Below, piece by piece: positions 181-30,146 of a stretch of 64,000 bases of DNA (positions are counted from its first letter, which is position 1; each line of letters begins with the position of its first letter). The position numbers and the translations under genes are program-made. The notes beneath the pieces are model-generated. The model worked only from the letters and a program-made list of their open reading frames with translations, was not told the DNA's origin and did not search any database. Source of the DNA: a virus (lineage: Duplodnaviria > Heunggongvirae > Uroviricota > Caudoviricetes); IMG/VR virus record IMGVR_UViG_3300027917_003468, positions 1 to 64,000 of that record; one strand, 5' to 3'.

Positions 181-234
181 TGGGAGGTATTCAGTTTAAC
201 CGGTTGCCCTTTAGGGGCGGAAAGGAGCATTATC

Positions 235-561: not shown

Positions 562-568
562 ACTAATT

Positions 569-606: not shown

Positions 607-663
607 TGGCCCGTATCCCCAGTATAACACCGTATCCGCAAGCAAGATCCGTGCCACCGAGCT

Positions 664-679
664 TGGCACGGAATTTGCA
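664..679 (+). promoter_or_regulatory. sigma-54 (-24/-12) promoter consensus TGGCACGgaatTTGCA
   Basis: Exact TGGCAC-N5-TTGCA spacing (GG 665-666, GC 677-678). Confidence 0.5.
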
Positions 680-726
680 TTACAGGGGCGTTTTGCCTTT
701 TAGAACGAGGTTTGTGCGATTTTTTT

Positions 727-768
727 CCAATCACCCCACCATATCATATCAAAGGGTGGGGTGATTGG
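727..768 (+). repeat. perfect 14-bp inverted repeat CCAATCACCCCACC/GGTGGGGTGATTGG with 14-nt loop
   Basis: Seen directly; lies downstream of putative sigma-54 promoter in leader of gene 933. Confidence 0.6.
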
Positions 769-854
769 AACAGAGTTATTTATCTTGCTAATAAGTATGT
801 TATACCTAGTAGAACAGCTCCTCCTAGCCACCTAAAAATAATTTGCTAAACTTC

Positions 855-882
855 TTGACAATCTTATCCGATTCGTTAAAAT
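855..882 (+). promoter_or_regulatory. sigma70-like promoter TTGACA-16-TAAAAT
   Basis: 855-860 TTGACA, 877-882 TAAAAT, 50 nt upstream of ATG 933. Confidence 0.5.
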
Positions 883-932
883 AGAAGATAGGGAGGCTTT
901 CAACAACTAACTAGTCTAAGGGAGGAATCAAG

Positions 933-1190
933 ATGACGTTATGGAAAACAATTAAAGTCGAATTGCTGACAACAAAAGATCTTATTGAGATCTTCGAGAA
1001 ACTGTCATCATATCGTCCGGCAAGTGTAAGGGAATTCGAGGCGATTGAAATGGCTATGAAGATCCGTAATAGCTTGATAGACTGGTCGCAAGTAGAAGAC
1101 GATCCAACCATCGACCAGTTTATCCGAGAACGTATCGAGGAAGATCTTAACAACAGTATTTCGGCATACATCGAGGAATACTCAATATAA
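933..1190 (+). CDS. hypothetical protein
   Basis: RBS AAGGGAGG 8 nt before ATG. Confidence 0.55.
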   Translation: MTLWKTIKVELLTTKDLIEIFEKLSSYRPASVREFEAIEMAMKIRNSLIDWSQVEDDPTIDQFIRERIEEDLNNSISAYIEEYSI

Positions 1191-1246
1191 CCACTTTGAC
1201 TAGGTAGAACGCCTCCCCTACCTAGTCATTTAGGGAGGGTAAGATT

Positions 1247-1636
1247 ATGAGTAAACCGAGAGAAGTTATTAGTGACAACCCAATCTATGATGCACTTCAG
1301 GAATGTATGTATGCCATGTCTTCACTTAACATGGAGGATGAAATCAACCCTGACTATGATCCCGATTCCGATGACTTCAACGACCATTTCATTTCAAACA
1401 AGTTTGTCTATGGGAAACATAGTTATGAACACATGAGAGCGGTCATCGAGGCTTTGTTCGTGGCAGAAGAAGAGAAGAAAAAGACCAAGGTCAAATTCTA
1501 TCAGGCCCTTGAGAAGCTACATTCTATGAAGCAAAACAATGAGCCAATTCCAGAAGAAGATACTTGCCACTCGATTGATTGTGAGTGTATCGATTGTTTG
1601 ATCCTTATAACGTACCAAAGATTTAATAAGATCTAA
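1247..1636 (+). CDS. hypothetical acidic protein
   Basis: RBS AGGGAGGG; followed by terminator hairpin. Confidence 0.55.
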   Translation: MSKPREVISDNPIYDALQECMYAMSSLNMEDEINPDYDPDSDDFNDHFISNKFVYGKHSYEHMRAVIEALFVAEEEKKKTKVKFYQALEKLHSMKQNNEPIPEEDTCHSIDCECIDCLILITYQRFNKI

Positions 1637-1647
1637 ATAAACTGATT

Positions 1648-1687
1648 GTGCCCAATAGAACACTCACTCTATTGGGCACTTTCTTTG
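1648..1687 (+). terminator. intrinsic terminator hairpin (GTGCCCAATAG..CTATTGGGCAC + T-rich)
   Basis: 11-bp stem, loop aacactcactc, followed by TTTCTTT. Confidence 0.55.
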
Positions 1688-2002
1688 TCTTGTATTCGGT
1701 TTATAACGTCTTTATATTTGGTATAGGTGGCGTTTTATTTTTTACAACACTTTTATTCCGCTCGCCCCGCTTTTTCCCGCCACCATCCCCATACACCTAC
1801 CTGGCGGGGCGAATGGAATAGGTTTTATTTTTCATTTTTTTTTCGTTTTTTTTTCGTTTTATATGTACAAGAACAATGGTATATCCAAGCTGGTAAGTGG
1901 GATGCCAGGGAGATCCACAAGATTCCTACTCAAATAGTGTATGCTCAAATAATACGTGGTGAAATAGTCCGTAGTGAAATAGTACGAGTTCGTACTATCT
2001 CT

Positions 2003-2018
2003 TGGCACGATAATTGCT
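2003..2018 (+). promoter_or_regulatory. sigma-54 (-24/-12) promoter consensus TGGCACGataaTTGCT
   Basis: Exact TGGCAC-N5-TTGCT; about 90 nt upstream of ATG 2109; preceded by GAAATAGTACGAG motif. Confidence 0.5.
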
Positions 2019-2108
2019 TGTAAAAAATGGTTCGTGAATCCTCTTGACAAGATATATATTGTTCATGTAGGATAAAAGGAAAAAACCACGAAAGGGGGTC
2101 GGGAGGCC

Positions 2109-2942: not shown

Positions 2943-3120
2943 GGTAAAAAGCTATTAGCACGGTGTTTCTATATACAAAACACTCTTGATAACATTTCAC
3001 CCTCTTTCTACTCCCACCCTACCCATATTTTTTTCCTTGACTTTACCTCTAACTAAATACTATAATCTAAGTATACAATTCATAACCATAATCAACCAGC
3101 AATCAGAGAAGGATACTTAC

Positions 3121-3951
3121 ATGACTCATTTTCAGTTATCAGCAAAACTAAATCACATACAATCCAGATACACTTACAACGCCCAAGCTTTTGACGAGCT
3201 AGATGGGGAGAGTGCATATTGGCTGGGGTTTATATATGCTGATGGGAACATGTACAACAATCGACTCACTATATGTTTACAGGCCAGGGATAGGTACGTA
3301 CTAGAACATTTTCGTTCGTTCATGCAAGCTGACATTTCCCTGCACTACCGGCCTCGCACAAATGCCTACGCCGTCAGTATCGGAAATCCGTATCTTGCTG
3401 CACGGTTGAAGATGTTAGGGGTAGTTCCAAGGAAGGCTAGAAAGATTCGTTATCCTGAGGTTATAAGTGAGTTAGGGTTAGATGGCGCTTTTATTCGGGG
3501 CTATTTTGATGGAGACGGATGGATTGCAATAGGTAAGCGTTCTACTCTAAGACTGGGGTTTGCATCGAACAGAGATTTCTTGGATGGGATTACAACAGTT
3601 ATAGAGGGGAAACTGGCGATAGTGAAACCCACATTCTTTGCAAACAAGCGTAAGCATCGAAATGGTTATTATGGTTCCATTAACTATTCAGGACGAGAGG
3701 ACATAAAAAAGATTGTGGATTTCATGTGTTCTGATATGGGATTCTTTATGGAACGGAAATTGGGGAAATTCTACAAGCTCTACATGCAGCTAGAAAACAA
3801 AAAAGGGAGACTAACAGGAAAAGAACGTAACGGTCGCCTTTACAAGAAATTCTATCTTCCTGAAGCACACCAGCAAGCCTATAGCCAGCTCCTTCTATTG
3901 AGCAGGGTACATGAGCCCCTTCCACCCTTTCCCTTTCAATCGGGGCACTAA
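3121..3951 (+). CDS. LAGLIDADG homing endonuclease (free-standing)
   Basis: Two LAGLIDADG-type motifs: WLGFIYADGN and IRGYFDGDGW. Start moved to the Met at 3121; the track start 2986 looks too far upstream. Confidence 0.75.
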   Translation: MTHFQLSAKLNHIQSRYTYNAQAFDELDGESAYWLGFIYADGNMYNNRLTICLQARDRYVLEHFRSFMQADISLHYRPRTNAYAVSIGNPYLAARLKMLGVVPRKARKIRYPEVISELGLDGAFIRGYFDGDGWIAIGKRSTLRLGFASNRDFLDGITTVIEGKLAIVKPTFFANKRKHRNGYYGSINYSGREDIKKIVDFMCSDMGFFMERKLGKFYKLYMQLENKKGRLTGKERNGRLYKKFYLPEAHQQAYSQLLLLSRVHEPLPPFPFQSGH

Positions 3952-5469: not shown

Positions 5470-6500
5470 GGTATGGATTTCTTCTTCCCTCTGGTTCATT
5501 TTGGCGAGCTGGCGGTCTAACTCTTCATGATTCACTTCTACACATTGGGGGTCTTAGCATGGATGATTCACTTTATGCCATTGGGTTCCTTTTACTTTGT
5601 GATTCGCTTTAGTCATATGGGCCTCTAAACTATGCTGGCTCACTCTAGGACTTTGGGCTCCTATGTGGGGATGATTCACTTAACAACAATGGATTTCTTT
5701 GGCTGGGTGGTTCACTTCTTTTTCAAGGGTTTCTTAAGAGTCTTGGCTCGCTTCGCTTATCTGGGTTTCTTTAAATTATTGGCTCGCTTTTGGTATATGG
5801 GTTTCTTATGACCGGTGATTCACTTAATCGCCATGGGTTTCTTATGAAAGGTGATTCACTAAACGATAATGGTTGCCTTTATCTGGGTGGTTCACTTCTT
5901 CTCTCAATGGGGTTCTTTCTTGTCATGATTCACTAATGCTCTTTGGATTTCTTTGAGTGGGTGATTCATTTCGGAAAGTTGGGTTTCTTAGAGATTGTGA
6001 TTCACTAACCAACCCTGGGCTTCTTTGATGTATTGATTCATTTCAATATCTTAGGTTTCTTAGGACCATTGATTCACTTTATGCCATTAAGAACCTATGG
6101 GTTCCTTTTACTTTGTGATTCACTTAATCATTTTGGGTTCCTTTGTAGCATTGATTTAAACACTTGATTCACTTTGCTCAATTGGATTCCTTGGAGTTCA
6201 TGATTCATTTCGGCAGCTTGGGTTCCTGCGTCCTAATGGTTTATTTGGGGACTCTGGGGTTTTTTGCGTCTATGGTTCACTTTACGGTCATGGAGTTCTG
6301 TCTGTCAATGATTCACTTGATCTTCCTGGGTTTCTTGGTTCTTGTGATTCACTTTGCGCCTCTAGGTTTCTTGCTTCTGATGGTTCACTTGCTCAAATTG
6401 GGCGTCTTTGATTTTGTGATTCACTTAATGATCATGGGTTCCTTTGAGTTTGTGGCTCATTTAAGGAGCTTGGTTGTCTTGAAAGTTATGATTATTCCTT
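5470..6500. repeat. non-coding tandem array, ~28 copies of a 36-bp unit (alternating 18-bp half-units TGATTCACTT / TGGGTTTCTT)
   Basis: Seen directly; each conserved block is followed by 7-8 variable nt; no long ORF except a repeat-driven 114-aa frame. Confidence 0.8.
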
Positions 6501-6543: not shown

Positions 6544-7497
6544 CTAATGCAACAATTTCATACCCTCATATACCCATCCTCGTTCTTCGGGCATAATCAT
6601 TCTATGAGCTCCTCCTAAAACTGCCACTGGATATACAGGATCGGTAGGCAGTCCTGATAGTGTTCTTCCTACGTACCAGTAATCGGCCAGGAAGTGTTTG
6701 GCAATCTCCCGGCATGCAGCATTATGGCGATGACCTTTGCTGGCATCTTTCCACATGACTTGCTTGTATCCCCCTTTGACTCTGGTGTGGGTAATACGCT
6801 CTGAGTCGATATACTTGGCTTTTACTTTTTCCTCAAGATAAGCATAAGGCCCTATCGGATCTTTGTTCTTGGCACGAATCTGAGACATGGCCATATTATA
6901 AAGCGCTGTTCTCAGGTTTCGGTTGCCGCCTCCTTTCTCTCCTCTTTTGTAGCGTTGGTAGGCAGGTTTGTCGTAGCCAGCATAAGCCCAAAGACTGGAG
7001 GCGTGATCGGCCTTTTCCAGATCGAGATATACCGTGCAATAAGCTACCGTAATGGGACCGATGTAGGGAACGCCCAAAGCAGAGGTAATAAGCGGGTTGT
7101 TCTCGCTCATCACCAGAATATGCTCTGAGACTTGCTGGGAGAGTTTATTCAGCCTATTTCGGTGAGGTTCCAGGTGTGCTTCGTAGTAGGCCAAGGTTTC
7201 GGGGTTTAAGTGATCGGTTCGGCGTTTTTTGAAGGCATCGATCCTGTTTTCAAGGGAGACCACAAGTTTCAGGATTTGATTACGGTCGTCTACAAGGCTC
7301 TTCAGGTGATCCAGCTCTTCGGTACGGTCTCGCCAGCTATCGTGATGTTTCAGATGCTCAACCGGTTCCATATATACAACATTTTCTTCTGAGTAAGTTC
7401 CTCCTTTCGATCCAGGTACTACACGGTGTTTGTCTCGACCTGCCTCCGACCCCTCTTCTAGTTCTTCTACTACTTTTTCATCTTCTAGTTTTGTCAT
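6544..7497 (-). CDS. IS110-family transposase C-terminal (Transposase_20-like) domain protein without recognisable DEDD N-domain
   Basis: GVPYIGPITVAY...AYAGYDKPAYQRYKRGEKGGGNRNLRTALYNMAMSQIR matches the IS110 C-domain pattern; N-terminus is acidic/coiled-coil. Confidence 0.5.
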   Translation of the reverse strand: MTKLEDEKVVEELEEGSEAGRDKHRVVPGSKGGTYSEENVVYMEPVEHLKHHDSWRDRTEELDHLKSLVDDRNQILKLVVSLENRIDAFKKRRTDHLNPETLAYYEAHLEPHRNRLNKLSQQVSEHILVMSENNPLITSALGVPYIGPITVAYCTVYLDLEKADHASSLWAYAGYDKPAYQRYKRGEKGGGNRNLRTALYNMAMSQIRAKNKDPIGPYAYLEEKVKAKYIDSERITHTRVKGGYKQVMWKDASKGHRHNAACREIAKHFLADYWYVGRTLSGLPTDPVYPVAVLGGAHRMIMPEERGWVYEGMKLLH

Positions 7498-7568: not shown

Positions 7569-8036
7569 TCAAAAAAAATTGAAATTTTTTATATCCTTGA
7601 CAATATCCTGCCAGAATCTCTCTCGTAGCCACTTATCCATTACGGTGATAAGGTGTTGGTAGCTTTCGGTAGGCAGGGATACTTCATATTTTGCTGCTCG
7701 AACAATATCATCCCTCGTTCCTTTGATTTGGTCGGTTATAAGCCATTGAGCAGAGTCAAATAGCTTTCGGTTATGGATGATCTCGAACTTGAATTGCGGG
7801 TTTTCACTATCAGCCCAGAGACGGAAGAGATAGGGATAGGGACGGATACGTGGATGTTTGTAATCTTCGTATGCCCAGAGAACACGCCAGTACTCGATTA
7901 CGTCAGGGTTATATTCCGGTTCTACCCAATTAGTGTCTTCGTAATAGCGTGTGGTTTGGTCCTGGGTTTTAGGTATTGGTATTACAGGGATCAAGGCGGC
8001 TGCAGGTAGAGCTCGTAAGAATTCACGTCTTTTCAT
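7569..8036 (-). CDS. secreted protein with Tat-like signal (MKRREFLRALPAAALIP)
   Basis: Internal Met gives an RREFL twin-arginine-like signal peptide; the longer track ORF (to 8189) would overlap the upstream gene extensively. Confidence 0.4.
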   Translation of the reverse strand: MKRREFLRALPAAALIPVIPIPKTQDQTTRYYEDTNWVEPEYNPDVIEYWRVLWAYEDYKHPRIRPYPYLFRLWADSENPQFKFEIIHNRKLFDSAQWLITDQIKGTRDDIVRAAKYEVSLPTESYQHLITVMDKWLRERFWQDIVKDIKNFNFF

Positions 8037-9231
8037 CTTGGGACTCCTTTGTGGTTTCGGGTTTCGTTCTTCTAGGGTTGTCAGGGATTCTAAAGTTAGG
8101 GCCGGTCCAGCTTGATATACCACTCTTACGGGCAGAGTGGGCGTATCGGTAAGTATGTCGGTGACGTCCAAGGATTCGTGCTTGGGCATTTAGGTCTGCT
8201 TGTAATCTTCGGTCAGTCCTCATAAGATATCTAGTGCTTTTCTCCAGTAAGATTAATCCCTTGTCCAGACCCCTTACCACTTTTGCCTGTTCTGTCACAT
8301 ACTCATGCAGGTACTCTCTACTGGCTGTTAGCTGCCGTATTGTCTTCTCTATGCTGCTGGTCTTGTAAGTTTGCTCTCGTAACTCCCGGCCTAACCGTTT
8401 CACCTCCTTTTCTAGGGCGGCTACTTGCTCTTTCATTTGTATGTCCTCCATTTCCGGCGGGACTATGAAGATCTCGCCATCAGGTCTATCCACTTCTGCC
8501 CGTTCTCTTAAATACGCCCTTTTCAGCTTCTCCAGTCCTTCCCGTTCGATCTGCCGTACCCGTTCCTTTGTTATGTCCATCTTCTGAGCAAGGCATTCGA
8601 GGGATATAGGATCGTCTTCTAACCCATCTAAGCCAAATCGATTCCTGAGGATGTACTGGTATCGATAATCCAAGCCTCCTAATGCCATTTTGAGGTAGTA
8701 CTTGTCTTCTTCTTTTAGTAAGAGCTCTTCAGGGCTCTCGGGTAAGGTATGGACATTGGCAAAAGCAAGTGCCTCGGATTTGGATACTTCGAGCTCGTAA
8801 TAGTTCTGCTTGGGGCTTCGGAACTCCTCAGGGAATAGATCTTCAGGTAACACGCCTAATGCCTCGGCCAGAAGACCTGCCGATTTGATCCAGTACAGGC
8901 CTTCGTAGCCGATGACAGGCTTATTCTTGTGGCCTCTGTGCTTGGCGCTTTTGGTGATCAGATCTTTCTTGAAGTTGAGTAAGCCCCCTACGGTTGAAGC
9001 GTCGATACCGGTTCTCCTGGCAAGTTCGCTCTGGTTGATGTTGCCCCACTTGTTCTTGACCAAGGTCCAGATGCGGTTGTTCTGTAACCTGACCTTTACC
9101 AGGAGATCTTTGGAAATTGTACTGTACTGATCATAAATGAACGGGACAGGTAGATCGTCCATAGCCCTTCTTTTCCTTACACCCTCAAGCTGTAGGTTGT
9201 GGTTGTATGGGCTATCCTTTCTTACTGTCAA
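8023..9231 (-). CDS. sigma-70 region-4-containing transcription regulator (N-terminal HTH + sigma region 4 + coiled coil)
   Basis: ILRNRFGLDGLEDDPISLECLAQKMDITKERVRQIEREGLEKLKRA is a typical region-4 HTH. Confidence 0.6.
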   Translation of the reverse strand: MTVRKDSPYNHNLQLEGVRKRRAMDDLPVPFIYDQYSTISKDLLVKVRLQNNRIWTLVKNKWGNINQSELARRTGIDASTVGGLLNFKKDLITKSAKHRGHKNKPVIGYEGLYWIKSAGLLAEALGVLPEDLFPEEFRSPKQNYYELEVSKSEALAFANVHTLPESPEELLLKEEDKYYLKMALGGLDYRYQYILRNRFGLDGLEDDPISLECLAQKMDITKERVRQIEREGLEKLKRAYLRERAEVDRPDGEIFIVPPEMEDIQMKEQVAALEKEVKRLGRELREQTYKTSSIEKTIRQLTASREYLHEYVTEQAKVVRGLDKGLILLEKSTRYLMRTDRRLQADLNAQARILGRHRHTYRYAHSARKSGISSWTGPNFRIPDNPRRTKPETTKESQDEKT

Positions 9232-14205: not shown

Positions 14206-14658
14206 CTATAATTCTATATCCTTGGAATTGTCAACTTTTAATTTGGAGGATTTGGGCTTATTTGTGGGTTTAGACTGCTTTATTACAGGTGCTTCAGAAT
14301 CGATTGTATCTTCAATACTTAGCTCAATTAGTTGTATTTCGTCATTCCATTTTACAGTATGGAGAGTTCTTTCATTAGGAGTAAGCCCATAATGTTTCAA
14401 GAAGGCTCGTCCATGTACAGTACCATATCTCGTATTGGATCTCTTTTGGATACTATAGGTATATTGGGCTTTTCTGTTTACTGGCATAATACCTACTTTT
14501 TTACTTTCATCGTCATAATATAACTCAACGTACTGATGATCTTTGATAAACTTTTCTAAACATTGCTCGTTAAGATTAAACATTCCATTTTTTGTAATTG
14601 ATATCGCTGGAAATGGAAGAGCTCTGTAATTACTTGTCTTGAATTGTTTGAATGCCAT
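14206..14658 (-). CDS. hypothetical protein (start at internal Met MAFKQF)
   Basis: Trimmed to avoid a large overlap with the sigma-54 activator gene. Confidence 0.4.
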   Translation of the reverse strand: MAFKQFKTSNYRALPFPAISITKNGMFNLNEQCLEKFIKDHQYVELYYDDESKKVGIMPVNRKAQYTYSIQKRSNTRYGTVHGRAFLKHYGLTPNERTLHTVKWNDEIQLIELSIEDTIDSEAPVIKQSKPTNKPKSSKLKVDNSKDIEL

Positions 14659-15664
14659 GACCAATCTCCTTTCCCGTCCGTTCTCGGTACCGTTGAAGTT
14701 TGTAATGCAATTTACTTTTACTAATACCCAGTTCACATGCTGCAGCCTTTTGTACAAATCCAGTCTTTTTTAGACTACGTAAGATCCATTCCAATTCTAT
14801 ATCCTCTAGTGCCTCTGTCATCTTGTTAGTGTAGCCGTTCGTACTTAGATGTTCTACAGTATGTGTTATGAGCTTCTTGGTGTCCGTAGGGATGGTGCTT
14901 GCAAGAACAGCATCTTTCTTGTGGAATAATATATGATCTTCCTTAATCTGATCATCAAAACAGAATAACACTGCTTGTTCCAGTACGCTTTTCAGTTCTC
15001 GTATATTTCCAGGCCATAGGTAGTGTTGTAATTTTTCTATAGCTGCTTTAGAGAACGATTTTATTGTACGCTGTTTATTGTATCTCTCTCTGAATATGGT
15101 TACATAGTGTTTTACTAATAGTGGGATATCTTCTAATCTATCTCTTAATGTCGGAACCTGTATTGTTGTGGTATTCAAACGGTAAAAGAGATCATCTCTA
15201 AATTTGTTCTGGTTAATCAACGTAATCATATCTTTGTTTGATAACGAAATAAATCGAGTATTGATATGAAAGGATTCGGTCCCACCTACCATTTCAAATT
15301 GCTGATTCTCCACTACTCTTAAAATCTTGGCTTGTACTGCCCAGCTCATATTCGAAATTTCATCCAGTACCAATGTTCCCTGGTCGGCAATGTGTAGCTT
15401 TCCTAATTTTCTTGTACTGGCATCTGTGAAGGCTCCTTTTACATGTCCAAACAATTCGGATTCTAATAGAGAGTCTTGTATAGCAGCGCAGTTTACTTTG
15501 ACTAGTTTATTTCTTATCCTTGCACTTTGTCTGTGCAGCTCATCTGCCACTAATTCTTTTCCTACTCCTGTTTCTCCTAGAACCAGTACAGGAATGGAGG
15601 AAGGAGCAACAAGCTTTATTTTTTCTTTTACTTCTTTGATTGCTTCACTTTTTCCTACTATCAC
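14630..15664 (-). CDS. sigma-54-dependent transcriptional activator (bEBP AAA+ domain + C-terminal Fis-type HTH; no receiver domain)
   Basis: Walker A GETGVGKE; ESELFGHVKGAFTDA (GAFTGA-like); Walker B LVLDE; C-terminal HTH AAACELGISKSKLHYKL. Confidence 0.8.
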   Translation of the reverse strand: MIVGKSEAIKEVKEKIKLVAPSSIPVLVLGETGVGKELVADELHRQSARIRNKLVKVNCAAIQDSLLESELFGHVKGAFTDASTRKLGKLHIADQGTLVLDEISNMSWAVQAKILRVVENQQFEMVGGTESFHINTRFISLSNKDMITLINQNKFRDDLFYRLNTTTIQVPTLRDRLEDIPLLVKHYVTIFRERYNKQRTIKSFSKAAIEKLQHYLWPGNIRELKSVLEQAVLFCFDDQIKEDHILFHKKDAVLASTIPTDTKKLITHTVEHLSTNGYTNKMTEALEDIELEWILRSLKKTGFVQKAAACELGISKSKLHYKLQRYRERTGKEIGHGIQTIQDK

Positions 15665-16371: not shown

Positions 16372-17343
16372 CTATGTCTCCGCTTTTTTAATTTGTTTTG
16401 CGGGAACTCCAGCCACAACTACATTAGGGGGGACATCATCAATTACAACGGCTCCCATACCCACTACACAATCCTTTCCGAGTCTTAGGCCGTTAAGGAT
16501 GGAAGCGCTGGGACCAACCCATACACAGTCTCCCATCTCAACACTTCCTCCAATCATGGCAAGAGCTACAATAGCGCAGCTTTTGCCAATCTTACAGTTA
16601 TGCGCTATATGCACCAAGTTATCGATTTTACTTCCTTCCCCTATTATAGTATCTCCTAGAGCTCCTCTGTCCACACAGGTATTTGCTTGTATCTCAACAC
16701 GATCCTCAATGATTACTCGACCTAGTTGTGGAAATTTTATAAGGTTGCCAGATGAAGTTCGCCACATTCCAAATCCGTCTGCTCCAATAATCGTACCAGC
16801 GTGGATAGTAACATCTTTACCTATTACTGTTTTAGGATGAATATGTGTATGTCCATGGAGACAACAATGGCTACCTACTTCACAGTTATTACCTACATAT
16901 GCAAATGGGCCTATGTAAGAGCTCGGATCGATTTTTGCTGAGGGCTCTATGATAGCTGAAGGATGGATCCCACCTAAGAATATGGAGCTGAAAAGTTTTG
17001 CTACCTCAATAAAGGCAAGTCTTGGGTTATCAACAAAAATTAATGTACTTGAAGTTATCCCACTGCAAACACGTTGGAGACTTGTTGGGCATATAATAGC
17101 TGATGCACGGCTGGTTTTAATTTTCTCCTGGCTTTGTATCATTTGATCTTGAGTGAATTCGGGGATCTCATCAATTATATCTAAGGGTCTCCGCTTTCGA
17201 TTACTAATACCTGGGAAATCGCAAAATGTAATTGTCCCTGTATCAGCCTCATGAATCGGCGCAACACGGTGGATTTCTATATCGAGATTGCCCCAGGTTG
17301 TATAAGGACAGCTAATTCTCTGGAGGATTACTTGTAGATTCAT
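16372..17343 (-). CDS. left-handed beta-helix (hexapeptide-repeat) sugar N-acyltransferase, LpxD/PglD-like
   Basis: Long run of [LIV]GxxxxI hexapeptides; C-terminal [10 protein letters not shown]. Confidence 0.7.
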
Positions 17344-17949
17344 CTAGTCAACCCACCTTTTTATAATAAATGCCTCTGCGTGGACTACTCCGATATGCTG
17401 CCCACGTAAACGAGCCAATGCTTCAATCTGTTCTAAGGATCGGTGCTGTCTAACTAATGTTTTATAGCGTCTGTAGGCTTCTAACTTTTGCTCTATATTG
17501 ATAGGTACAAAGTAATTAACTTCATAGTCCATGTTGTACCAGAAACAATCGAGCAGTTCATAGACAAGTACCTTCTTTACAAAAAATATTTCATCGTGTG
17601 GCCTGAGAGCTGTCATAGCAGTATCGTAGATAAGACGGTGATCTTGATTGTACGAAGGATATGGCAAGAAGATGCGGTCAGGTTGCTGCTCATTGATAAT
17701 TTTTTGGAACACATTAACCCAATATTGTTCGCCATAGTACTGGTAGCGATTAGCTTCTATACGGAACTCGCTATCCCAGGAGTATTTTAGAAATTCAGCA
17801 ACAGTTTTGAGATCGTCGATTAGATGTTCCTTGGTTACGTGGGGGAGTAGATTAAGACCACAAAAATACACATGGGAAGAAGAACTGAGTATGCCTCCGC
17901 ACCCAAGTACTTCGTCATCTACGTGGGGAGATATAATAAGATCTTTCAC
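17344..17949 (-). CDS. PIG-L/LmbE-family deacetylase
   Basis: N-terminal SPHVDDEVLGCGG motif. Confidence 0.65.
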   Translation of the reverse strand: MKDLIISPHVDDEVLGCGGILSSSSHVYFCGLNLLPHVTKEHLIDDLKTVAEFLKYSWDSEFRIEANRYQYYGEQYWVNVFQKIINEQQPDRIFLPYPSYNQDHRLIYDTAMTALRPHDEIFFVKKVLVYELLDCFWYNMDYEVNYFVPINIEQKLEAYRRYKTLVRQHRSLEQIEALARLRGQHIGVVHAEAFIIKRWVD

Positions 17950-20698: not shown

Positions 20699-21826
20699 CT
20701 AATCTTTTCCAAGTATCTTTTTGAGATACGTCACCAACTGTTTTGCTCTTATATCTACTGTATGATAACGATGTACTAGCTCGAATCCAGCTTTTGTTAT
20801 ACGTTCCAATTCTTCTGATTGCCCTAACCAATGTATGATCTTATCTTTGATGCTCTTATCATTTAATGATATCTCTATCATGTTATTATCTGGAATAAAG
20901 CCTAATCTTCCTAGTTCTGGTGTATAATCGGAGAGTAGAGCCGAATTACAGGCTGGTATCTCAAAAGTTTTCAACACGGAATAGTTTAATATACTTGTAC
21001 AGGAAACCGCCATGAAAGAGCTGTTAATCATCTTAGCGTATTTTTTGCCGGTATATGTCCCTAACTCTCTTTTTGTGTATATCTCATGTGGGAGAGGAAG
21101 GTGCATGCAGAACGATTCCTCTTTAAGTTCTTGGCTCATACGATATCGGAGAGGGTATACTTCTGAATTGTTATGTCCAGTTAATAGACATCCAATAGAT
21201 TTTTCATGTCTATAGTCTTTATAGATTGTAGGAGATATACATAGAGGTAACCACATTACCTGTTCCATATTTATGTCTGGAAGGAGTGTATTGAATGGAT
21301 CATAATAAGCAGCCAACATGACTTCAAATCCAAATTCAGTATTAACCTTTCTAATTTGCTTTTGTAGTCTAGATCCGTGGATGTCAACTAATCTTAGGAC
21401 TTTGAGCTGATCGTATTTTTTCCACTTTTCTGTCATGAATGCCCAGATCGCATCACAGATAATGACATCGCAATTTTCTACCTTGCGTTTGGATAACAGT
21501 GGTTCTGATTCAATTGTCCCATTCCATACCTTATCTCTCCAAACAGAATGCTCCAGTTTTATATTACGCTCTTCGAGATATACATTGGCATATTTGGCCA
21601 CAGCTCTGGGCAACGGTGTAAAATATTGTGAATCCCATCTTTTAGAGCGATCAACGGTCAGCCATAAAATTGTAATATCATGATTACTGCTGCTAATAAG
21701 TTTACTGTGTGGTTCAAGATACCTATAAAATCCTTTTTCTACCCTCCTTTTGGCAACGCTCTCGGAAACACTCTTGATAGCTCCATCAGCAATTCTTTCG
21801 ATCTTGACTACTGGTTGTTTGGCCAA
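20699..21826 (-). CDS. CgeB-like/DUF3880-like glycosyltransferase-family protein; paralog of 51844..52854
   Basis: Shared C-terminal block FEIPACNSALLSDYTPELGRLGFIPDNNMIEI with the paralog. Confidence 0.5.
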   Translation of the reverse strand: MAKQPVVKIERIADGAIKSVSESVAKRRVEKGFYRYLEPHSKLISSSNHDITILWLTVDRSKRWDSQYFTPLPRAVAKYANVYLEERNIKLEHSVWRDKVWNGTIESEPLLSKRKVENCDVIICDAIWAFMTEKWKKYDQLKVLRLVDIHGSRLQKQIRKVNTEFGFEVMLAAYYDPFNTLLPDINMEQVMWLPLCISPTIYKDYRHEKSIGCLLTGHNNSEVYPLRYRMSQELKEESFCMHLPLPHEIYTKRELGTYTGKKYAKMINSSFMAVSCTSILNYSVLKTFEIPACNSALLSDYTPELGRLGFIPDNNMIEISLNDKSIKDKIIHWLGQSEELERITKAGFELVHRYHTVDIRAKQLVTYLKKILGKD

Positions 21827-24488: not shown

Positions 24489-24845
24489 TCATCTGACAAC
24501 ATCCCCCTTTTCTTGTGCAGCTTGATTTTCCTCCTCCTTCATTAACTTCGGAAGGTTAATTAGATTGGTTATTTGCTCGTCCTGCAATCTAATAATAGTA
24601 CAGAGTTTGTATACAAGTTCTGGAGATTGAGCGAGGAATTCCAACAGAGTGGCACTAGTAATTTTTCTAACTTGTTGTAAGGTCAATGGTGGGTTGATTT
24701 GTTCGACGGCCTCTTCTATAACTTCAATATCTTTTATGGTAATCAGTTCGGGTCTTTTATTGATGAAGGTTCGCAGATTAGTTATAGGCATTTTTATTAT
24801 TCCCTGTATGTCTTTTGGCTGGCGTGAGTGGATTCGAACCACCAT
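24489..24845 (-). CDS. hypothetical protein
   Basis: ORF; the track end overlaps tRNA-Asn slightly. Confidence 0.35.
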   Translation of the reverse strand: MVVRIHSRQPKDIQGIIKMPITNLRTFINKRPELITIKDIEVIEEAVEQINPPLTLQQVRKITSATLLEFLAQSPELVYKLCTIIRLQDEQITNLINLPKLMKEEENQAAQEKGDVVR

Positions 24846-24892
24846 ATTCCTGATTAACAGTCAGGCTCCATTGCCGAGTCGGACACACGCCA
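24816..24892 (-). tRNA. tRNA-Asn (anticodon GTT), CCA encoded
   Basis: Hand-folded cloverleaf: acceptor TGGCGTG/CACGCCA, T-loop GGTTCGAATCC, anticodon loop CTGTTAA. Confidence 0.75.
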
Positions 24893-24971
24893 GGATTGGG
24901 GCATATCTCTAATCTGGACTGCGATCCGACTATTCTCGTGTTGATGAATACAGAATGTCATCTTTTCCTCC

Positions 24972-25045
24972 CTTTAACTGGCTTGGGGAAAAGGACTCGA
25001 ACCCTTATTTCTGGAGCCAAATTCCAGCGTCCTGCCGTTGGACGA
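24972..25045 (-). tRNA. tRNA-Gln (TTG), CCA encoded
   Basis: Acceptor TTGGGGA/TCCCCAA, T-loop GGTTCGAGTCC, anticodon loop ATTTGGC. Confidence 0.7.
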
Positions 25046-25210
25046 TCCCCAAACTCTTTCGCTGGTTAATTTATTCATGGTCTGACGGTACCATAGCTCT
25101 GGATTCTTGTCAATACCTTTTAGAAAAAAAATTGAATCCCAAGAAAATATTTGATTCGGTTACAGAGAGTGTTATAATAAAATAACTAAATAATATAACA
25201 GGGGAATTCC

Positions 25211-25837
25211 ATGGATAATAAACCTTTCCTAACTGTTGTAACTCGTTGCTTTAAAAGGCCTTTGTTGTTACGAGAAAATGTAAAATCTCTTAAATCACAA
25301 ACGGACCCAGATTATGAACAGATTTTTATCATAGATCGTAAAGGTAAAGGTCTTGCTGCTGCTGATCGAGTCTTGGATGAGTACAAGGATCTCAATACGG
25401 GCCAGTACATTCTTGTATTAGATGACGATGACATGGTTCTAGAATCCGAGTTTATTGCTACTGTCAAGGAGGTGGCAAAAGATAAAGATCCAGATGTAAT
25501 TATATGGAGAGGTCGGTTTGGTAAAGGATATCAAACCGACCTTCCACCTAAAGATACTAATTGGGGAAAGACTATTGTAAAAGCTAAAATAGGCAGTTTC
25601 AACTATGCCATAAAAAATGAACTTTATAAAAAACATATTCATGTCTGCAAAACCGGAGTGGCTGGTGACTTTGATTTTCTAAAAAAAGTTCTTAATCAAT
25701 GTCCTCCTCAAAAGGTTGTGTGGCTTGATACTACCTTTGTTGGAATACAGGTAAAGAGTAAAGGTAGAGCCGTTCAAAGTGTACGTAAGATTGGTAACAA
25801 AAGAGTTCTCAGTCGCCATAAGAATCGCTGGCGGTAA
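25211..25837 (+). CDS. GT-A-like glycosyltransferase-family protein; paralog of 53621..54238
   Basis: FLTVVTRCFKRP...DPDYEQIFIIDRKGKGL matches FLTIITRAYKKP...DADYEHIILEDKIGKGL; isolated + strand gene with extended -10 TGTTATAAT upstream. Confidence 0.55.
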   Translation: MDNKPFLTVVTRCFKRPLLLRENVKSLKSQTDPDYEQIFIIDRKGKGLAAADRVLDEYKDLNTGQYILVLDDDDMVLESEFIATVKEVAKDKDPDVIIWRGRFGKGYQTDLPPKDTNWGKTIVKAKIGSFNYAIKNELYKKHIHVCKTGVAGDFDFLKKVLNQCPPQKVVWLDTTFVGIQVKSKGRAVQSVRKIGNKRVLSRHKNRWR

Positions 25838-25839
25838 TA

Positions 25840-26235
25840 TTACTTGATCTCAATCTTCTTTACGTATTTCTCTTTCTTTGGAATCGTGATTAGTAGGATA
25901 CCGTTCTTTAGCTCTCCCTCAATCTGATCTACTATAATATTATCTGGTAGGGAATAGGTTCTAGAGAAGGCTCCGCTAAAATCCCATTCGTCGCTCTTTT
26001 CTTTCTTCTCGCCCCGAATACTTATAATACCATCAGAAATTTCTACTGTAACTTCATCCTTCTCAAATCCAACCGCTTCTGCACGAATAAGATACTCTTT
26101 GTCGGTTTCTTTCGTTTTCAGTTCAAAAGATGCATTCCCAGCCCCTCCCCAGGTAGTATCCATATCTGACCAGTAGGGAAAAAGAGACTGGTTGAAATCA
26201 AACAATGATTTTAATGGATTGTATTTTACTATCAT
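25840..26235 (-). CDS. small heat-shock protein (Hsp20/alpha-crystallin domain)
   Basis: Alpha-crystallin pattern: AEAVGFEKDEVTVEI..ISIRGEK...F.R...LP...V....GILLITIPKK. Confidence 0.65.
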   Translation of the reverse strand: MIVKYNPLKSLFDFNQSLFPYWSDMDTTWGGAGNASFELKTKETDKEYLIRAEAVGFEKDEVTVEISDGIISIRGEKKEKSDEWDFSGAFSRTYSLPDNIIVDQIEGELKNGILLITIPKKEKYVKKIEIK

Positions 26236-26438
26236 GGTTTTATCCCCCTATCTTAGTATGTTTGTATGCCGCAGTAAAGGACAGCACCTAGATAACCAGT
26301 GACGAGTAGAGTTGCTATTGTAAGCCCAACTTCAGCTATTTTTTCTTTGGTACATTTACTCATCTTTAATTCCTCCCGGTTTGTTTTTACTAGATATATT
26401 CCAGTATACCTAGTAAAATAATCATTAATTTAAACCGG

Positions 26439-26933
26439 TCAACCTTTTGTTTTGAGATATTCTAAAATTTTACACATCCGATTATATGTGCGCTCATGAA
26501 TATCTGTGTAACCTTTTCTTCCTTCGGAATTACCAGCTACATTGAGTACGTGAATTGAATTTTTTTCAATCCACATAGCTACCTTCTCAGTTTCCTTGTC
26601 ATCCTCTTTTTTTAGATCAATATCAAAATGGGGCTTGTTACAGTATTTTATTGCCTGTCTGGTACATCGTTCTCCAGCAGTATTAAATGTTACAGCAAAT
26701 CGTATAGTACCGTCAGATATGATTACATTTGCCCATGTACGTTGAGGATATCCCCCCCCTTTAAGTTCAGCAAGTCCAAATCTATTTTTCAATAGTTTCT
26801 TGTTCGGGCCATCTAGAGTCATCCAACCTTCAGGGGCAAATCCGCCAGTTTTGATCTTATATTTTTTAGCTGCAAATAAACCGGCCTGATCTGCTCCTGT
26901 TTGACCTCCAGATATAATCATTTCTAATGGCAT
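26439..26933 (-). CDS. SLOG-superfamily protein (putative molybdenum-cofactor-carrier-like, GGQTGAD motif)
   Basis: MIISGGQTGADQAGL N-terminal motif. Confidence 0.45.
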   Translation of the reverse strand: MPLEMIISGGQTGADQAGLFAAKKYKIKTGGFAPEGWMTLDGPNKKLLKNRFGLAELKGGGYPQRTWANVIISDGTIRFAVTFNTAGERCTRQAIKYCNKPHFDIDLKKEDDKETEKVAMWIEKNSIHVLNVAGNSEGRKGYTDIHERTYNRMCKILEYLKTKG

Positions 26934-26948
26934 CTTCTTACCTCTTGA

Positions 26949-27446
26949 TCATGTCTTTCTTTTCACCTTGTATACTCTTCTTTTCTTTACTATCGGTTCT
27001 TGTACTTTCTTCACAACAGGAGCAGATTTGAGAGCCCCCGCTTTCTTGAGTTTGACATACTCCTGATACTCCTGCCAAATTTTGTCTACTCGTATCTTCT
27101 TCTTTGTCTTACCGAAACTACTGATGGCCATCTTCTTTATATTTTTGAATTCTTTCTTTGCCACTTCAGAGCTATCTCCTATTCTCATGTCCTCCACCGA
27201 TTTACAAACATGATGGAACCCGAGAAAGTACATAGGACAGTAAGTACAGACAGCAGTAGTAGCTTTTGTTTGTTGATGTATATTCTGGCAGAGGGGACGT
27301 AATACTGTAGCCTGATCGATATACTGGAAGTTAAACGCCATCCAGATATCCAGAGTTCTGTCAATAGCTTTTAGTAGGTCCTCACGATCTACACCTTTGA
27401 AACCCATATGATTTCTCCTTATAGAAGTACTAATAACATAATACAA
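26949..27446 (-). CDS. hypothetical protein with Lys-rich tail
   Basis: ORF. Confidence 0.4.
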   Translation of the reverse strand: MYYVISTSIRRNHMGFKGVDREDLLKAIDRTLDIWMAFNFQYIDQATVLRPLCQNIHQQTKATTAVCTYCPMYFLGFHHVCKSVEDMRIGDSSEVAKKEFKNIKKMAISSFGKTKKKIRVDKIWQEYQEYVKLKKAGALKSAPVVKKVQEPIVKKRRVYKVKRKT

Positions 27447-27523
27447 ATAAGACCAAAAATTGTTGACAAAAGAATTAGGTCTTCGATTTCTCTGGGGTCC
27501 ATTTTATTGCCTTCCTGTATTAC

Positions 27524-27607
27524 GGAGGATAGAGGATTTGAACCCCTACTGGTGTTACCCAGACTTCCGATTTCGAGTCGGATACCTTACCATTCAGTCA
27601 ATCCTCC
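27524..27607 (-). tRNA. tRNA-Ser (CGA), long variable arm, no encoded CCA
   Basis: Acceptor GGAGGAT/ATCCTCC; anticodon arm TCCGA-CTCGAAA-TCGGA; long extra arm; T-loop GGTTCAAATCC. Confidence 0.7.
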
Positions 27608-27789
27608 AATTTTTTGAGAATGTTTTTATAATGCTCTAAAGCTTTTATAGTGTCCCAATAAGTATAAGTAGATAGAATATCCTCGCTTTTTGTAATTTCC
27701 CATATTTCATCGTCAACATCTCTTGGGTCCATAAATTCACTTCTGGGATAAAGTAAATAGGCTAAAGCTTTCATAACTGGATCAATCAT

Positions 27790-28188
27790 TTAATTCTCCT
27801 TATTTATCTCTTCTCGCATCCAGTTACTTAATGGGCAATCCTGTTTTAAGAGCTCTTCAAAATAACCTGGTGCGTGAGAGAGGTAGACACGAGTGTGTTT
27901 ATCATTTTGGATTAGCACACTTTTGAATGTGGGAGTCCAAACATGGCCACACCCAGAAGGTTCGGTTTCGAAGTCTTTCTCCTTACAGATCCTTTCCTTC
28001 TCTACCCATTTCTTTGCACTCATGTAATATTCATATAACTCATTGTAAGTTGGCTCTCTACCATTTAGAGACCAATCATAATCACAACAGATATCATCGA
28101 TCTCTTTGCCGCACTTTGGACAATCAATATAACCCATCATAATAGTCAATCCTCCACAATATTTTTTGCTGCTTCTTCCCCAGCCCAT
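27790..28188 (-). CDS. hypothetical Zn-binding protein
   Basis: CPKCG..CC. Confidence 0.4.
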   Translation of the reverse strand: MGWGRSSKKYCGGLTIMMGYIDCPKCGKEIDDICCDYDWSLNGREPTYNELYEYYMSAKKWVEKERICKEKDFETEPSGCGHVWTPTFKSVLIQNDKHTRVYLSHAPGYFEELLKQDCPLSNWMREEINKEN

Positions 28189-28344
28189 AGTATTAGGTCG
28201 TCTGAAAGCTGCGGGTTTTCTTTTGAGATTATCTGTGCATAGGTTATCATGGCTTTTCTTGAGGCTACTGCGTATATGTCAGTACCCTTTGGCTTGAGAA
28301 CAAAATACTTCATTACTAGACCTTCCATTTCTTCCTCCTTCCAT

Positions 28345-28422
28345 TGGCAGGTGGGACAGGATTCGAACCCGCACAGTCTCTGGATTTGGAGTCCAGTGCC
28401 TTACCAGTTTGGCTACCCACCT
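28345..28422 (-). tRNA. tRNA-Trp (CCA), CCA encoded
   Basis: T-loop GGTTCGAATCC; anticodon loop CTCCAAA; acceptor pairs. Confidence 0.7.
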
Positions 28423-28598
28423 ATGTTATCTTTCTTATACCTGTGAAGTCCATTTCTTGCTCCACAGATAGGACATTTTTTCCATTCGTTCACTAACATC
28501 ATATCACATTTGTCGCACCAAAACTTCCCCTTTTTTGGTGTGAATCTTTCTTCTCTATTTGATTGTTTATACTTGTAGAGCTCTAATACTGTTGCCAA
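28413..28598 (-). CDS. small Zn-ribbon protein
   Basis: CDKCD...CPICG; 3' end overlaps tRNA-Trp by ~10 nt. Confidence 0.35.
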   Translation of the reverse strand: MATVLELYKYKQSNREERFTPKKGKFWCDKCDMMLVNEWKKCPICGARNGLHRYKKDNIGG

Positions 28599-28618
28599 TG
28601 TTTACCTCCTGCATGTCA

Positions 28619-29023
28619 TTAAAAGGTATAGAGACTTTCCTTTTTTTCTTTTGCTCGTTGCTGTTGGATTTTGAGGGTTTCGCAGCTCTGTTGTAGTACT
28701 GTGTCATTTGGAGTCCTGCGTAATTCTCTCAGGCAATTATTGTAGTCCCTTTCAAGTGAGTCCTCTAAATAATCATATTGCTGATACTGCTGCCCCTTTT
28801 GGAAATCCTTCATAGTTTGAACTGTTTCAAGTTCTAGTTGTACGATTTTTTGTTCCAATTTCTCTTCAATATGTAAAAATCCTTTCTTCACTTCTTCACA
28901 CTTTGCAAGCCGATCATCGTATTTGATAAATCCAAAAATAAGTCCAAATGCGACACCAACACCAGTAACCGTTTTCCAAATTCTACCGTTAGTTTTCTTT
29001 CTGTTATTATTGTTCTCAGTCAT
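28619..29023 (-). CDS. membrane-anchored coiled-coil protein
   Basis: N-terminal TM segment. Confidence 0.4.
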   Translation of the reverse strand: MTENNNNRKKTNGRIWKTVTGVGVAFGLIFGFIKYDDRLAKCEEVKKGFLHIEEKLEQKIVQLELETVQTMKDFQKGQQYQQYDYLEDSLERDYNNCLRELRRTPNDTVLQQSCETLKIQQQRAKEKKESLYTF

Positions 29024-29079
29024 GGTTCTCTCCTTCTATCCTATTACTGATACTTGACAACAACACTAGTGCTTTCCTC

Positions 29080-29110
29080 TTGACTTTCGATTTTTCTTGC
29101 GTTATTATAT
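29080..29110 (+). promoter_or_regulatory. sigma70-like promoter TTGACT-17-TATTAT(ATAAT)
   Basis: Upstream of + gene 29192. Confidence 0.5.
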
Positions 29111-29191
29111 AATACATAGCTCGTAATGTGCAACCTCAAAACAGAGGCTGGTTAAACAAAAAAGGCCAGTGTAGACAAAGGAGAAGGCTCA

Positions 29192-29656
29192 ATGACAGAA
29201 CAAGATCTAAAGTACCAACAAGAACGTGAATTCGAAACTGGTATGGATGAGTTCTTCAAAGCACACACGCTAGGAAGATCGAGTTCAGAGGCCGAGAATC
29301 TAAGAAATCTGTATGCAAACATCAAGAGAACATTTGATGAGTACCAGCAAGAAAGTCTGGAATCCATCAAGAGAAATCGGACATTTGTAGATAAGGTGCT
29401 TACAGATGCGCAGCAAAATGATAATGCTCGGCAAAACATTGCCAACCAAGCGCTACAGAATGCAGTAGAAACAGCGAATATGGTAGGCAAACAGGCTGTA
29501 CGGCATAGTGACATTGCGATTGATCGGCAGTGGAATGTGGATGAGCAAGGATATACAGCACAGAAAATCCTAGCTGCGATCCAAGATCCCGCAGTGATTG
29601 CTGCTATGGCTGCGTCGATTGCGAAGGCTATGACTGACATGGCCGGTAACAAGTAA
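29192..29656 (+). CDS. hypothetical protein (moron-like: own promoter and terminator, opposite strand to neighbours)
   Basis: RBS AAGGAGAAGG; followed by terminator 29686-29720. Confidence 0.55.
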   Translation: MTEQDLKYQQEREFETGMDEFFKAHTLGRSSSEAENLRNLYANIKRTFDEYQQESLESIKRNRTFVDKVLTDAQQNDNARQNIANQALQNAVETANMVGKQAVRHSDIAIDRQWNVDEQGYTAQKILAAIQDPAVIAAMAASIAKAMTDMAGNK

Positions 29657-30128: not shown

Positions 30129-30146
30129 AAGACTCCTCCCGTTTTA

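Follow-up and report, generated by a model that had tools for sequence, protein, structure and literature searches.

Whether a tailed phage can bring its own activator for the sigma-54 RNA polymerase of its host, and use it at promoters of its own, is the question raised by a gene at 14630-15664 of a 64,000-nucleotide stretch, positions 1 to 64,000 of the IMG/VR virus record IMGVR_UViG_3300027917_003468 (this whole stretch is hereafter called the window). The gene encodes a bacterial enhancer-binding protein (bEBP) of 344 amino acids (aa) without a sensor domain, and perfect sigma-54 promoter sites of the -24/-12 type stand in the early-like region of the same phage. From these sequence features, we estimate with a probability of roughly 60% that the phage activates the host sigma-54 holoenzyme (E-sigma54) at its own promoters via its own bEBP.

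Domain architecture of the bEBP

The initial annotation proposed the open reading frame (ORF) of 344 aa at 14630-15664 without giving its strand. The ORF is borne out and lies on the minus strand with a GTG start codon, and the plus-strand reading frame is riddled with stops. The Pfam model Sigma54_activat (PF00158) matches residues 2-169 over 168 of its 168 positions (8.1e-61; 205 bits versus a cut-off of 20.2), AAA_lid_14 is also matched (9.9e-21), and the Fis-type helix-turn-helix (HTH) model HTH_8 (PF02954) aligns its positions 2-42 of 42 to the C-terminal residues 286-326 (14687-14809, minus strand; 4.9e-9, 36.2 bits versus a cut-off of 22). The Pfam models AAA_5, MCM, and Mg_chelatase score at least 30 orders of magnitude worse than Sigma54_activat. 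The profile search thus returns the sigma-54 AAA+ family and not MoxR or RuvB, the two families named beforehand as the alternatives. In the PDB, 35 solved bEBP chains are matched below 1e-30, the best of which is ZraR (1ojl, 6.8e-68), followed by NtrC1, NifA, FleQ, and PspF. Judged from these matches, the assignment of the protein to the sigma-54 activators is secure.

The translation shows the Walker A motif GETGVGKE at residues 30-37 (15554-15577) and the Walker B motif LVLDE at residues 98-102 (15359-15373), both on the minus strand. In an alignment of 14 homologous sequences, on which all statements about residue conservation in this study rest, G30, E31, G33, G35, K36, and E37 in the former and D101 and E102 in the latter are invariant. 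N58, R156 and R162 (within FRDDLFYRL), and R222 (within GNIREL) are also present and are invariant or nearly so among the homologues. By reference to PspF and NtrC1, we take N58 to be the glutamate-switch Asn, R156 and R162 to be the arginine fingers, and R222 to be the sensor II residue. The complete central AAA+ domain, both Walker motifs, and the C-terminal HTH described in the initial annotation were all recovered by Pfam and translation.

The N-terminal boundary of the bEBP should be noted. Pfam detects no receiver domain (PF00072) in the protein. The AAA+ model aligns from its position 1 at the very start of the protein, a TGA codon stands in frame six codons upstream of the GTG, and the nearest homologues begin at the same residue. 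Therefore, the lack of an N-terminal regulatory domain, which had already been claimed, is true of the sequence and is not an artefact of annotation. The product of the ORF is best explained as a functional sigma-54-dependent enhancer-binding protein cut down to the AAA+ motor, the lid, and the Fis-type HTH.

The L1 loop and its predicted contact with sigma-54

The sigma-54 contact motif is located in the L1 loop, which is carried by the segment ESELFGHVKGAFTDA (15419-15463, minus strand, from the translation). The translation and the homologue alignment place the motif at residues 77-82 (15419-15436, minus strand), where it reads GAFTDA. A GAFTGA-type loop conserved in the homologues had been expected and is found, the exact motif of the phage protein being a natural variant. 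G77, F79, T80, and A82 are invariant in the 14 sequences. Among the relatives, the five closest (P0001-P0005) have GAFTDA, P0006 has GAFTSA, and P0007-P0009 have G[AS]FTGA; three more distant clade members thus retain the canonical GAFTGA or GSFTGA.

The variant raises the possibility of a sigma-54-independent regulator, in which the HTH and the ATPase act on sigma-70-type promoters and GAFTDA represents a lost contact with sigma-54. The family includes TyrR, which acts without sigma-54 and whose model matches the bEBP at 2e-57, and operator-like elements recur beside the sigma-70-like promoters of the early modules described below. Dickeya VfmH, which also has GAFTDA, did not pull down sigma-54, and the effect of the G-to-D exchange was left open in that study (PMC10714721). 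On the other hand, Kazakov et al. count GAFTDA among the natural variants expected to retain activation, and the motif is carried by DVU2106, for which a sigma-54-dependent regulon is cited (PMC4641369). In addition, the critical contacts of the loop, its F and T residues, do not vary among the homologues, the distant clade members carry the canonical motifs, and perfect sigma-54 promoters are present in the same genome. We consider a regulator independent of sigma-54 very unlikely on these grounds.

Phage origin and relatives of the bEBP

Judged from its genomic context, the bEBP gene is phage-borne. The window encodes a large terminase, TerL (phrog_38, 1.5e-73), a portal protein (phrog_145, 2e-64), and ten tRNA genes (24816-37515). 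The same phage is represented by a 78,120-bp ENA contig (ERZ27279932 k141_3111640), which is 99.994% identical over 17.5 kb and extends 1,559 bp past the window start; the phage is an uncultivated tailed phage of about 78 kb. L091 and L229, mentioned below, are fetched segments of this phage, and L091 (about 19 kb) covers the left end of the window and the 1,559 bp beyond it. The cultured phages with the closest portal proteins infect various Proteobacteria and share only about 25% identity in this protein, which gives no host assignment.

A database of 5.8 billion proteins contains one entry identical to the bEBP and eight relatives with 48-66% identity, each of 305-359 aa and without a sensor domain. 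Beneath them come ordinary bacterial response-regulator bEBPs with identities of 44% or less. The receiver domain is present in the nearest bacterial homologues and absent from the nine-member phage clade. The contigs of five relatives are syntenic with the window around the bEBP gene and are phage-like, with single-strand runs of small unannotated genes accompanied by HNH, glycosyltransferase, and HSP20 genes.

The clade appears to be rare. Among the GTDB representatives (185,579 bacterial and archaeal reference genomes), no match to the bEBP exceeds 48% identity even in its best segment. A generic bEBP pattern matched 230 IMG/VR contigs, the best being 49% identical; among the best 80 of the 230 matches, most have long N-terminal extensions and about 12 are short. 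Many of these 80 genes are located close to the end of their contig, as would be expected of host flanks of prophages. IMG/VR scans with the bEBP protein and with the clade alignment gave no clade member. Megablast of the 12 kb around the gene gave no DNA match in 50,697 deposited phage records, and tblastn of the bEBP against the same records gave identities below 41%, mostly to mislabelled bacterial contigs. The PHROGs match is phrog_7998 (6e-55), a family without an assigned function. The results with the reference genomes and IMG/VR agree with the earlier statement that phage-borne bEBPs are uncommon. In the searchable literature, we found no published work on phage-encoded bEBPs, phage sigma-54 promoters, or phage use of the sigma-54/bEBP pathway. 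As far as sequence comparison tells, the protein represents a new phage-specific clade of a well-known family, with a PspF-like architecture, and is not an orthologue of PspF, RtcR, or NtrC.

Consensus -24/-12 sites in the early-like region

The window contains three perfect matches to TGGCAC-N5-TTGC. Two of them form a back-to-back pair, in which the minus-strand arm TGGCACGGATCTTGC (642-656) and the plus-strand arm TGGCACGGAATTTGC (664-678) are 7 bp apart. The third site stands alone. It is a perfect extended sigma-54 promoter, TGGCACGATAATTGCT, on the plus strand (2003-2018; core 2003-2017), located 92 nt upstream of the ORF 2109-2342 and 26 bp upstream of the -35 element of a sigma-70-like promoter, inside an insertion of 27 bp that the paralogous module at 89-153 lacks. 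A second back-to-back pair, composed of TGGCACGGATCTTGC and TGGCACAAGTCTTGC, is found in the ENA contig, 0.7 kb outside the start of the window. Of the perfect sigma-54 promoters, two had been pointed out initially, at 664 and 2003; both are real, but the number was underestimated, since there are three in the window and five in the phage. All five are intergenic and lie within about 3.4 kb of the leftmost early-like region, which makes the link between the bEBP and sigma-54 promoters stronger than was claimed.

The occurrence of these sites is non-random. The three perfect sites in the window compare with 0.07 expected, and none of 100 dinucleotide-preserving shuffles reaches three; the five in L091 (19 kb) compare with 0.01 expected. 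The extended consensus TGGCACG-N4-TTGCW is matched at 16 of 16 positions by all three window sites and at 16 and 15 of 16 by the pair outside, and the GG and GC doublets of all three window sites are exactly one helical turn apart. The next-best sigma-54 site in the 64 kb is far weaker, and no perfect site was found in the other ~70 kb of the phage examined, including 9.3 kb past the right end of the window.

The region 642-678 is an inverted repeat and was flagged by a terminator scan. A hairpin or terminator was rejected as the main explanation, because the paralogous pair loses the complementarity of the arms. When the two paralogous pairs are compared, 19 nt of the left arm are unchanged. 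In the right arm, all eleven consensus positions (TGGCAC, TTGCA) are kept and every one of the five spacer positions has changed, and the central gaps are alike in neither length nor sequence. The retention of the consensus while spacer and gap diverge suggests that selection acts on the sigma-54 contacts and not on a hairpin. Both transcripts expected from the 642/664 pair are predicted to be strongly structured in their 5' parts (z = -4.9 and -3.1), which alone shows little. No RpoN box was found in about 75 of the 78 kb of the phage. This argues against a phage-encoded sigma-54, and the sigma factor would have to be that of the host.

The left-end region is built of repeated modules, of which there are at least five paralogous copies (window 1-2100 and L091 17498-19056). 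The order within a module is a terminator, a sigma-54 pair (in some), a long GC-rich inverted repeat, 15-bp repeats ending in a palindrome (in some), an A-tract with a TTCTTGACA-type sigma-70-like promoter, and then a few small orphan ORFs. The module downstream of the 642/664 pair has the sigma-70-like promoter TTGACA-16-TAAAAT on the plus strand (855-882) with the conserved A-tract and TTCTTGACA, and similar promoters are located at 147-175 and 2044-2073. Just downstream of the 664 site is a GC-rich inverted repeat with 23-bp arms (725-770; fold z = -4.9), which may be an RNA hairpin or a candidate enhancer. Related repeats at 1754-1820 and at the window start (1-55) have the arms GTCGCCCCGC/GCGGGGCGAC and a 33-nt loop identical in the two copies.

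The pairs are placed just after terminators, between modules. This placement would also suit a role as holoenzyme traps, in which closed complexes of E-sigma54 serve as roadblocks or insulators between the early modules, or as a sponge for sigma-54, and the phage bEBP clears or fires the traps at a set time. We know of no precedent for such traps. Other viral contigs show dense alternating arrays, including face-to-face sites 3 nt apart, not all of which can be productive, and E-sigma54 is known to bind promoters in a stable, transcriptionally inactive state (PMC4591121). However, the 2003 site is positioned as an ordinary promoter with respect to the ORF 92 nt downstream, and the phage of the window has pairs only and no arrays. 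We therefore regard traps as improbable.

Pairs and arrays of sigma-54 sites in other viral contigs

We searched IMG/VR for the back-to-back pattern GCAA-N5-GTGCCA-N4-9-TGGCAC-N5-TTGC. The pattern occurs in at least 50 contigs (L096-L145) with GC contents from 30 to 68%, versus two for a scrambled pattern of the same composition. Near these pairs, 110 additional sigma-54-like sites, which are not forced by the pattern, were found at a density of 4.6 per kb within 250 bp of the pairs versus 0.42 per kb farther off. Their profile matches the known consensus at unweighted positions too, position 8 being a purine in 76%. Two or more extra sites are present at 24 of the 50 loci, and the orientation alternates within the arrays (for example, L102 418-600, L097 2435-2585, and L131 7700-7925). 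The arrays are located directly upstream of the terminase and portal genes (terS/terL/portal) in five loci examined, and L124 (360-3800) has early-type modules of a pair, a hairpin, and a sigma-70-like promoter as in the window.

The spacers of the two arms are complementary at 43% of positions in 46 unique pairs from these other contigs, and hairpins consequently do not explain the pairs. That the motif stays constant across such varied base composition suggests a binder that is universally conserved, with sigma-54 as the obvious candidate. These pairs and arrays make the window sites more credible as sigma-54 sites. No description of the pattern was found in the searchable literature.

A broader reading is that tailed phages of many hosts use host sigma-54 via recurrent pairs or arrays near large hairpins, and that the lineage of the window has added its own activator and a partner protein. 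We put this forward tentatively, at less than even odds, and hold with the same reserve the placement that it entails, namely sites at early modules or just upstream of packaging genes.

A coupled downstream gene and the possible control of the bEBP

The ATG of a conserved 150-aa ORF (14206-14658, minus strand) overlaps the last codons of the bEBP gene, with AGGAG 8 nt upstream, and its product is a candidate trans-acting partner. In all five lineages examined, an ORF of this type (140-150 aa) begins within the last bEBP codons. The five orthologues share 27-41% identity, and their N- and C-termini are conserved. As read from these gene arrangements, the bEBP and the partner ORF are conserved together in a clade of uncultivated tailed phages and are translationally coupled. 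The partner ORF has no match in Pfam, PHROGs, or PADLOC, and a PDB profile search gave chance matches only. An AlphaFold2 model from the single sequence has a predicted local distance difference test (pLDDT) score of 36.7 and no usable fold.

The presence of this ORF bears on how the bEBP may be controlled. The best-studied bEBPs lacking an N-terminal domain, PspF and HrpR/HrpS, are regulated in trans by small partners. Because a conserved and translationally coupled partner ORF follows the bEBP gene and such domain-less bEBPs are controlled in trans, the description of the phage protein as constitutively active in the initial annotation is unproven and should be read as "not gated by a covalently attached sensor". 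About 6 kb past the right end of the window, a 282-aa stand-alone PAS-domain protein is encoded beside an amidase gene (L229 18285-19133, ~70.0-70.9 kb in window coordinates), and it is conceivable as a detached sensor for the bEBP.

PspF of Enterobacteria resembles the phage protein in having an AAA+ sigma-54 domain, a linker, and a Fis-type HTH without an N-terminal sensory domain. Solved PspF AAA+ domains match the phage bEBP at 1.5e-55, and TIGR02974 aligns residues 2-326 to its positions 1-336 of 336. However, the equivalog cut-offs are missed (TIGR02974, 272.9 versus 443.55 bits; NF008622, 232.1 versus 529), and the protein is no orthologue of PspF. The latter is a chromosomal protein that PspA keeps inactive via the surface tryptophan W56 and that activates pspA and pspG. 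In contrast, the phage bEBP is phage-encoded, has the GAFTDA loop, and is followed by an unrelated 150-aa ORF; at the position of W56, as far as can be read by eye from both sequences, it has Ile.

HrpR and HrpS of Pseudomonas syringae are likewise domain-less bEBPs with AAA+ and HTH, whose activity is set in trans by the small partners HrpV and HrpG. By analogy, the coupled downstream ORF could take an HrpV/HrpG-like role. Unlike the phage system, in which only one bEBP gene was found, HrpR/HrpS form a hetero-hexamer of two paralogues and control a bacterial virulence regulon, and the phage partner ORF has no detectable similarity to anything in the databases searched. The central domains of ZraR, NtrC1, and NifA are the closest solved relatives (ZraR 1ojl is matched over residues 2-325 including the HTH) and share the mechanistic motifs. 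These proteins possess their own receiver or GAF domains to gate assembly, neither of which is present in the phage bEBP.

Proposed mechanism and its weighing

In the mechanism that we propose, the bEBP would be made from the long leftward gene block and assemble the usual ring after infection, while host E-sigma54 would hold the phage consensus -24/-12 promoters in closed complexes. ATP hydrolysis and the GAFTDA loop would then remodel the host polymerase at these promoters to give open complexes. Within the leftmost early-like region, these promoters are interleaved with strong sigma-70-type promoters. Three plus-strand sites (664, 2003, and one outside the window) may feed the small-ORF modules that the neighboring sigma-70-like promoters also serve and provide a second, sigma-70-independent route of transcription, whereas the minus-strand sites of the pairs, which face the terminator of the preceding module, may yield short structured antisense RNAs. 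The action of the bEBP on the phage promoters, its timing, and the transcripts are what we infer here from the arrangement of the gene and the sites.

Several observations, in addition to the behavior of VfmH, weigh against this mechanism. That the host possesses rpoN is deduced only from the promoters, and a back-to-back arrangement is unusual for promoters that are productive. The sigma-54 promoter regions have no motif of 11 nt or longer (one mismatch allowed) and no palindrome in common. The sole palindrome adjoining a promoter, the perfect 9+9 palindrome ATAGTACGA-GT-TCGTACTAT (1979-1998), closes a run of 15-bp repeats (TGAAATAGTNCGTAG, ~1928-1995) and lies 4 bp upstream of the -24 element at 2003, that is, at about -40. 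Degenerate copies of it are found upstream of sigma-70-like promoters in modules without a sigma-54 site, and the palindrome is thus not specific to sigma-54 promoters. Measured from the inferred start of the minus-strand site, the inverted repeat at 725-770 lies 95-140 bp upstream, a canonical enhancer distance that holds for this site only. The search for upstream activator sites, which the initial annotation had recommended, therefore yielded two kinds of candidate, the palindrome at 1979-1998 and the GC-rich inverted repeats. Neither kind is sigma-54-specific, and no motif is shared.

Comparative data are of the same tendency. A combined query of six early ORFs found no homologues of them, and a family-specific DNA pattern returned only a 1.5-kb fragment of the same phage from the metagenomes of the Joint Genome Institute (JGI). 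The other bEBP phage contigs (L001-L010) have no strong sigma-54 site, their early regions not lying within those contigs. Moreover, no bEBP gene is present in the fetched segments of the at least 50 viral contigs with back-to-back pairs, which indicates that phage sigma-54 sites need not be served by a phage activator.

Likeness to RtcR and possible action on the host

The last points bear on a host-directed reprogramming, in which the bEBP binds host enhancers and turns on a host sigma-54 regulon useful to the phage. Candidate targets would be an rsr/rtcBA-type RNA-repair operon or envelope-stress, nitrogen, or motility genes. In that case, host activators would act at the sigma-54 sites of the phage, or these sites would serve another purpose. 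The bEBP retains a specific DNA-binding HTH, yet no shared site is found near the phage promoters, and many viral contigs have sigma-54 sites without a nearby bEBP.

The best PADLOC match of the bEBP also deserves attention in this respect. The AAA+ and HTH part matches the RtcR-type model CARF_AAA_HTH at 5.6e-92 (model positions 169-478 of 481), whereas the CARF sensor (model positions 1-168) is absent. The NCBIfam model of RtcR is matched at 3e-84, but with 283.8 bits versus a cut-off of 650. The phage also encodes a Ro60/TROVE protein with a vWA domain (38620-40233, minus strand; 6e-65 and 1.7e-37) near the ten tRNA genes; no Y-RNA-like Rfam match at the gathering threshold was found. In some bacteria, an RNA-repair and quality-control gene set is under the sigma-54 activator RtcR. 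Ro60 and RtcB belong to one RtcR-controlled operon in Salmonella (cf. PMC9879122). The Ro60/TROVE gene thus fits the RtcR likeness thematically and, with the ten tRNAs, lends an RNA-repair flavor to the phage that would agree with action on the host. The scores of the RtcR, NifA, NorR, and PspF models are, however, similar and all far under the curated cut-offs, so that no specific affinity to RtcR is indicated, and the five perfect sigma-54 promoters of the phage itself offer the simplest targets. We judge host-directed reprogramming to be unlikely for these reasons.

The same PADLOC match, to CRISPR-associated CARF_AAA_HTH regulators with the CARF domain missing, could suggest an anti-defence decoy, a sensor-less subunit that joins or competes with CARF- or receiver-controlled bEBPs of the host and blunts a sigma-54-dependent defence or stress response. 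Since bEBPs work as hexamers, mixed rings are conceivable. The similarity to CARF_AAA_HTH is, however, generic to the family, and all catalytic residues, which a pure poison subunit would not need, are intact. We give the decoy hardly any credence.

Other genes and repeats of the phage

Two separate sigma-70 region-4 proteins had been reported in the window, and both are confirmed by Sigma70_r4 matches. They are a 402-aa protein (8023-9231, minus strand; 8.2e-11, phrog_351) and a 165-aa protein (57017-57514, minus strand; 4.1e-9, phrog_351). Region 4 is the only sigma-70 region detected in either, region 2 being undetected. Instead of complete sigma factors, the two proteins may be regulators that bind the -35 element or factors that appropriate sigma.

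Directly 3' of an IS110-like gene (6544-7497; Transposase_20, phrog_4285), the stretch 5470-6500 consists of about 28 non-coding repeats of 36 bp in tandem, with the consensus ATGGGTTTCTT-N9-GTGATTCACTT-N6. A phage with a 54%-identical IS110-like homologue has a similar 36-bp array at the same position (L232 3535-4389), and IS110-like homologues in other long phage contigs belong to replication modules. In appearance, the array resembles an iteron-type origin, with the IS110-like gene product as its putative binding protein. Apart from the same phage, the long phage contigs found via the IS110-like gene have no bEBP and no sigma-54 site within 10 kb of it.

An unusually large block of sugar-modifying genes occupies 16372-17949 and ~42300-54320 on the minus strand. 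It includes an LpxD-like acyltransferase by Pfam, and a faint PIG-L match and several glycosyltransferases by the precomputed annotation of L091 and L229; the remaining genes of the block were assigned by eye from the ORF translations. Further glycosyltransferase-like genes are located at 20699-21826 and 25211-25837. TerL (951 aa, 58855-61710, plus strand) is matched by its PHROG family in two stretches, and its residues ~240-610 match LAGLIDADG_3 (4.7e-14) and, weakly, an intein splicing domain. TerL is thus probably split by a LAGLIDADG intein. A LAGLIDADG-like ORF is also present at 2986-3951.

Significance of a phage-borne sigma-54 activator

To our knowledge, all well-studied phage takeovers of host transcription proceed through the sigma-70 family or phage polymerases. 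MotA/AsiA and gp55/gp33 of T4, gp28 of SPO1, Q of lambda, and Mor/C of Mu re-target the host polymerase to phage promoters later in infection. The phage bEBP would follow the same logic of redirecting host RNA polymerase, but these regulators act on or replace the sigma-70 family, whereas the bEBP would use sigma-54. Transcription by sigma-54 is mechanistically separate, as its locked closed complex is opened only by an ATP-driven activator, and for this reason it would be immune to phage action on sigma-70. A phage with an always-available activator and consensus promoters would own a private and nearly leak-free channel of transcription. The bEBP and its promoters would also give a compact orthogonal activator-promoter pair for synthetic biology.

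The statistics of the sites and the integrity of the bEBP motivate the suggestion that a phage drives the host sigma-54 polymerase with an activator of its own, which is new as far as we could establish. The pairs and arrays in at least 50 unrelated viral contigs suggest that the phenomenon is wider than this phage. If the use of sigma-54 by phages of many hosts is true, sigma-54 would be a previously unrecognised axis of phage gene control, freed in this lineage from host signalling, and sigma-54-driven antisense or small RNAs of phages would be one of its possible outputs. No phage is known to use the sigma-54 transcription system of its host; if the proposed mechanism holds, this phage may run part of its programme through it.

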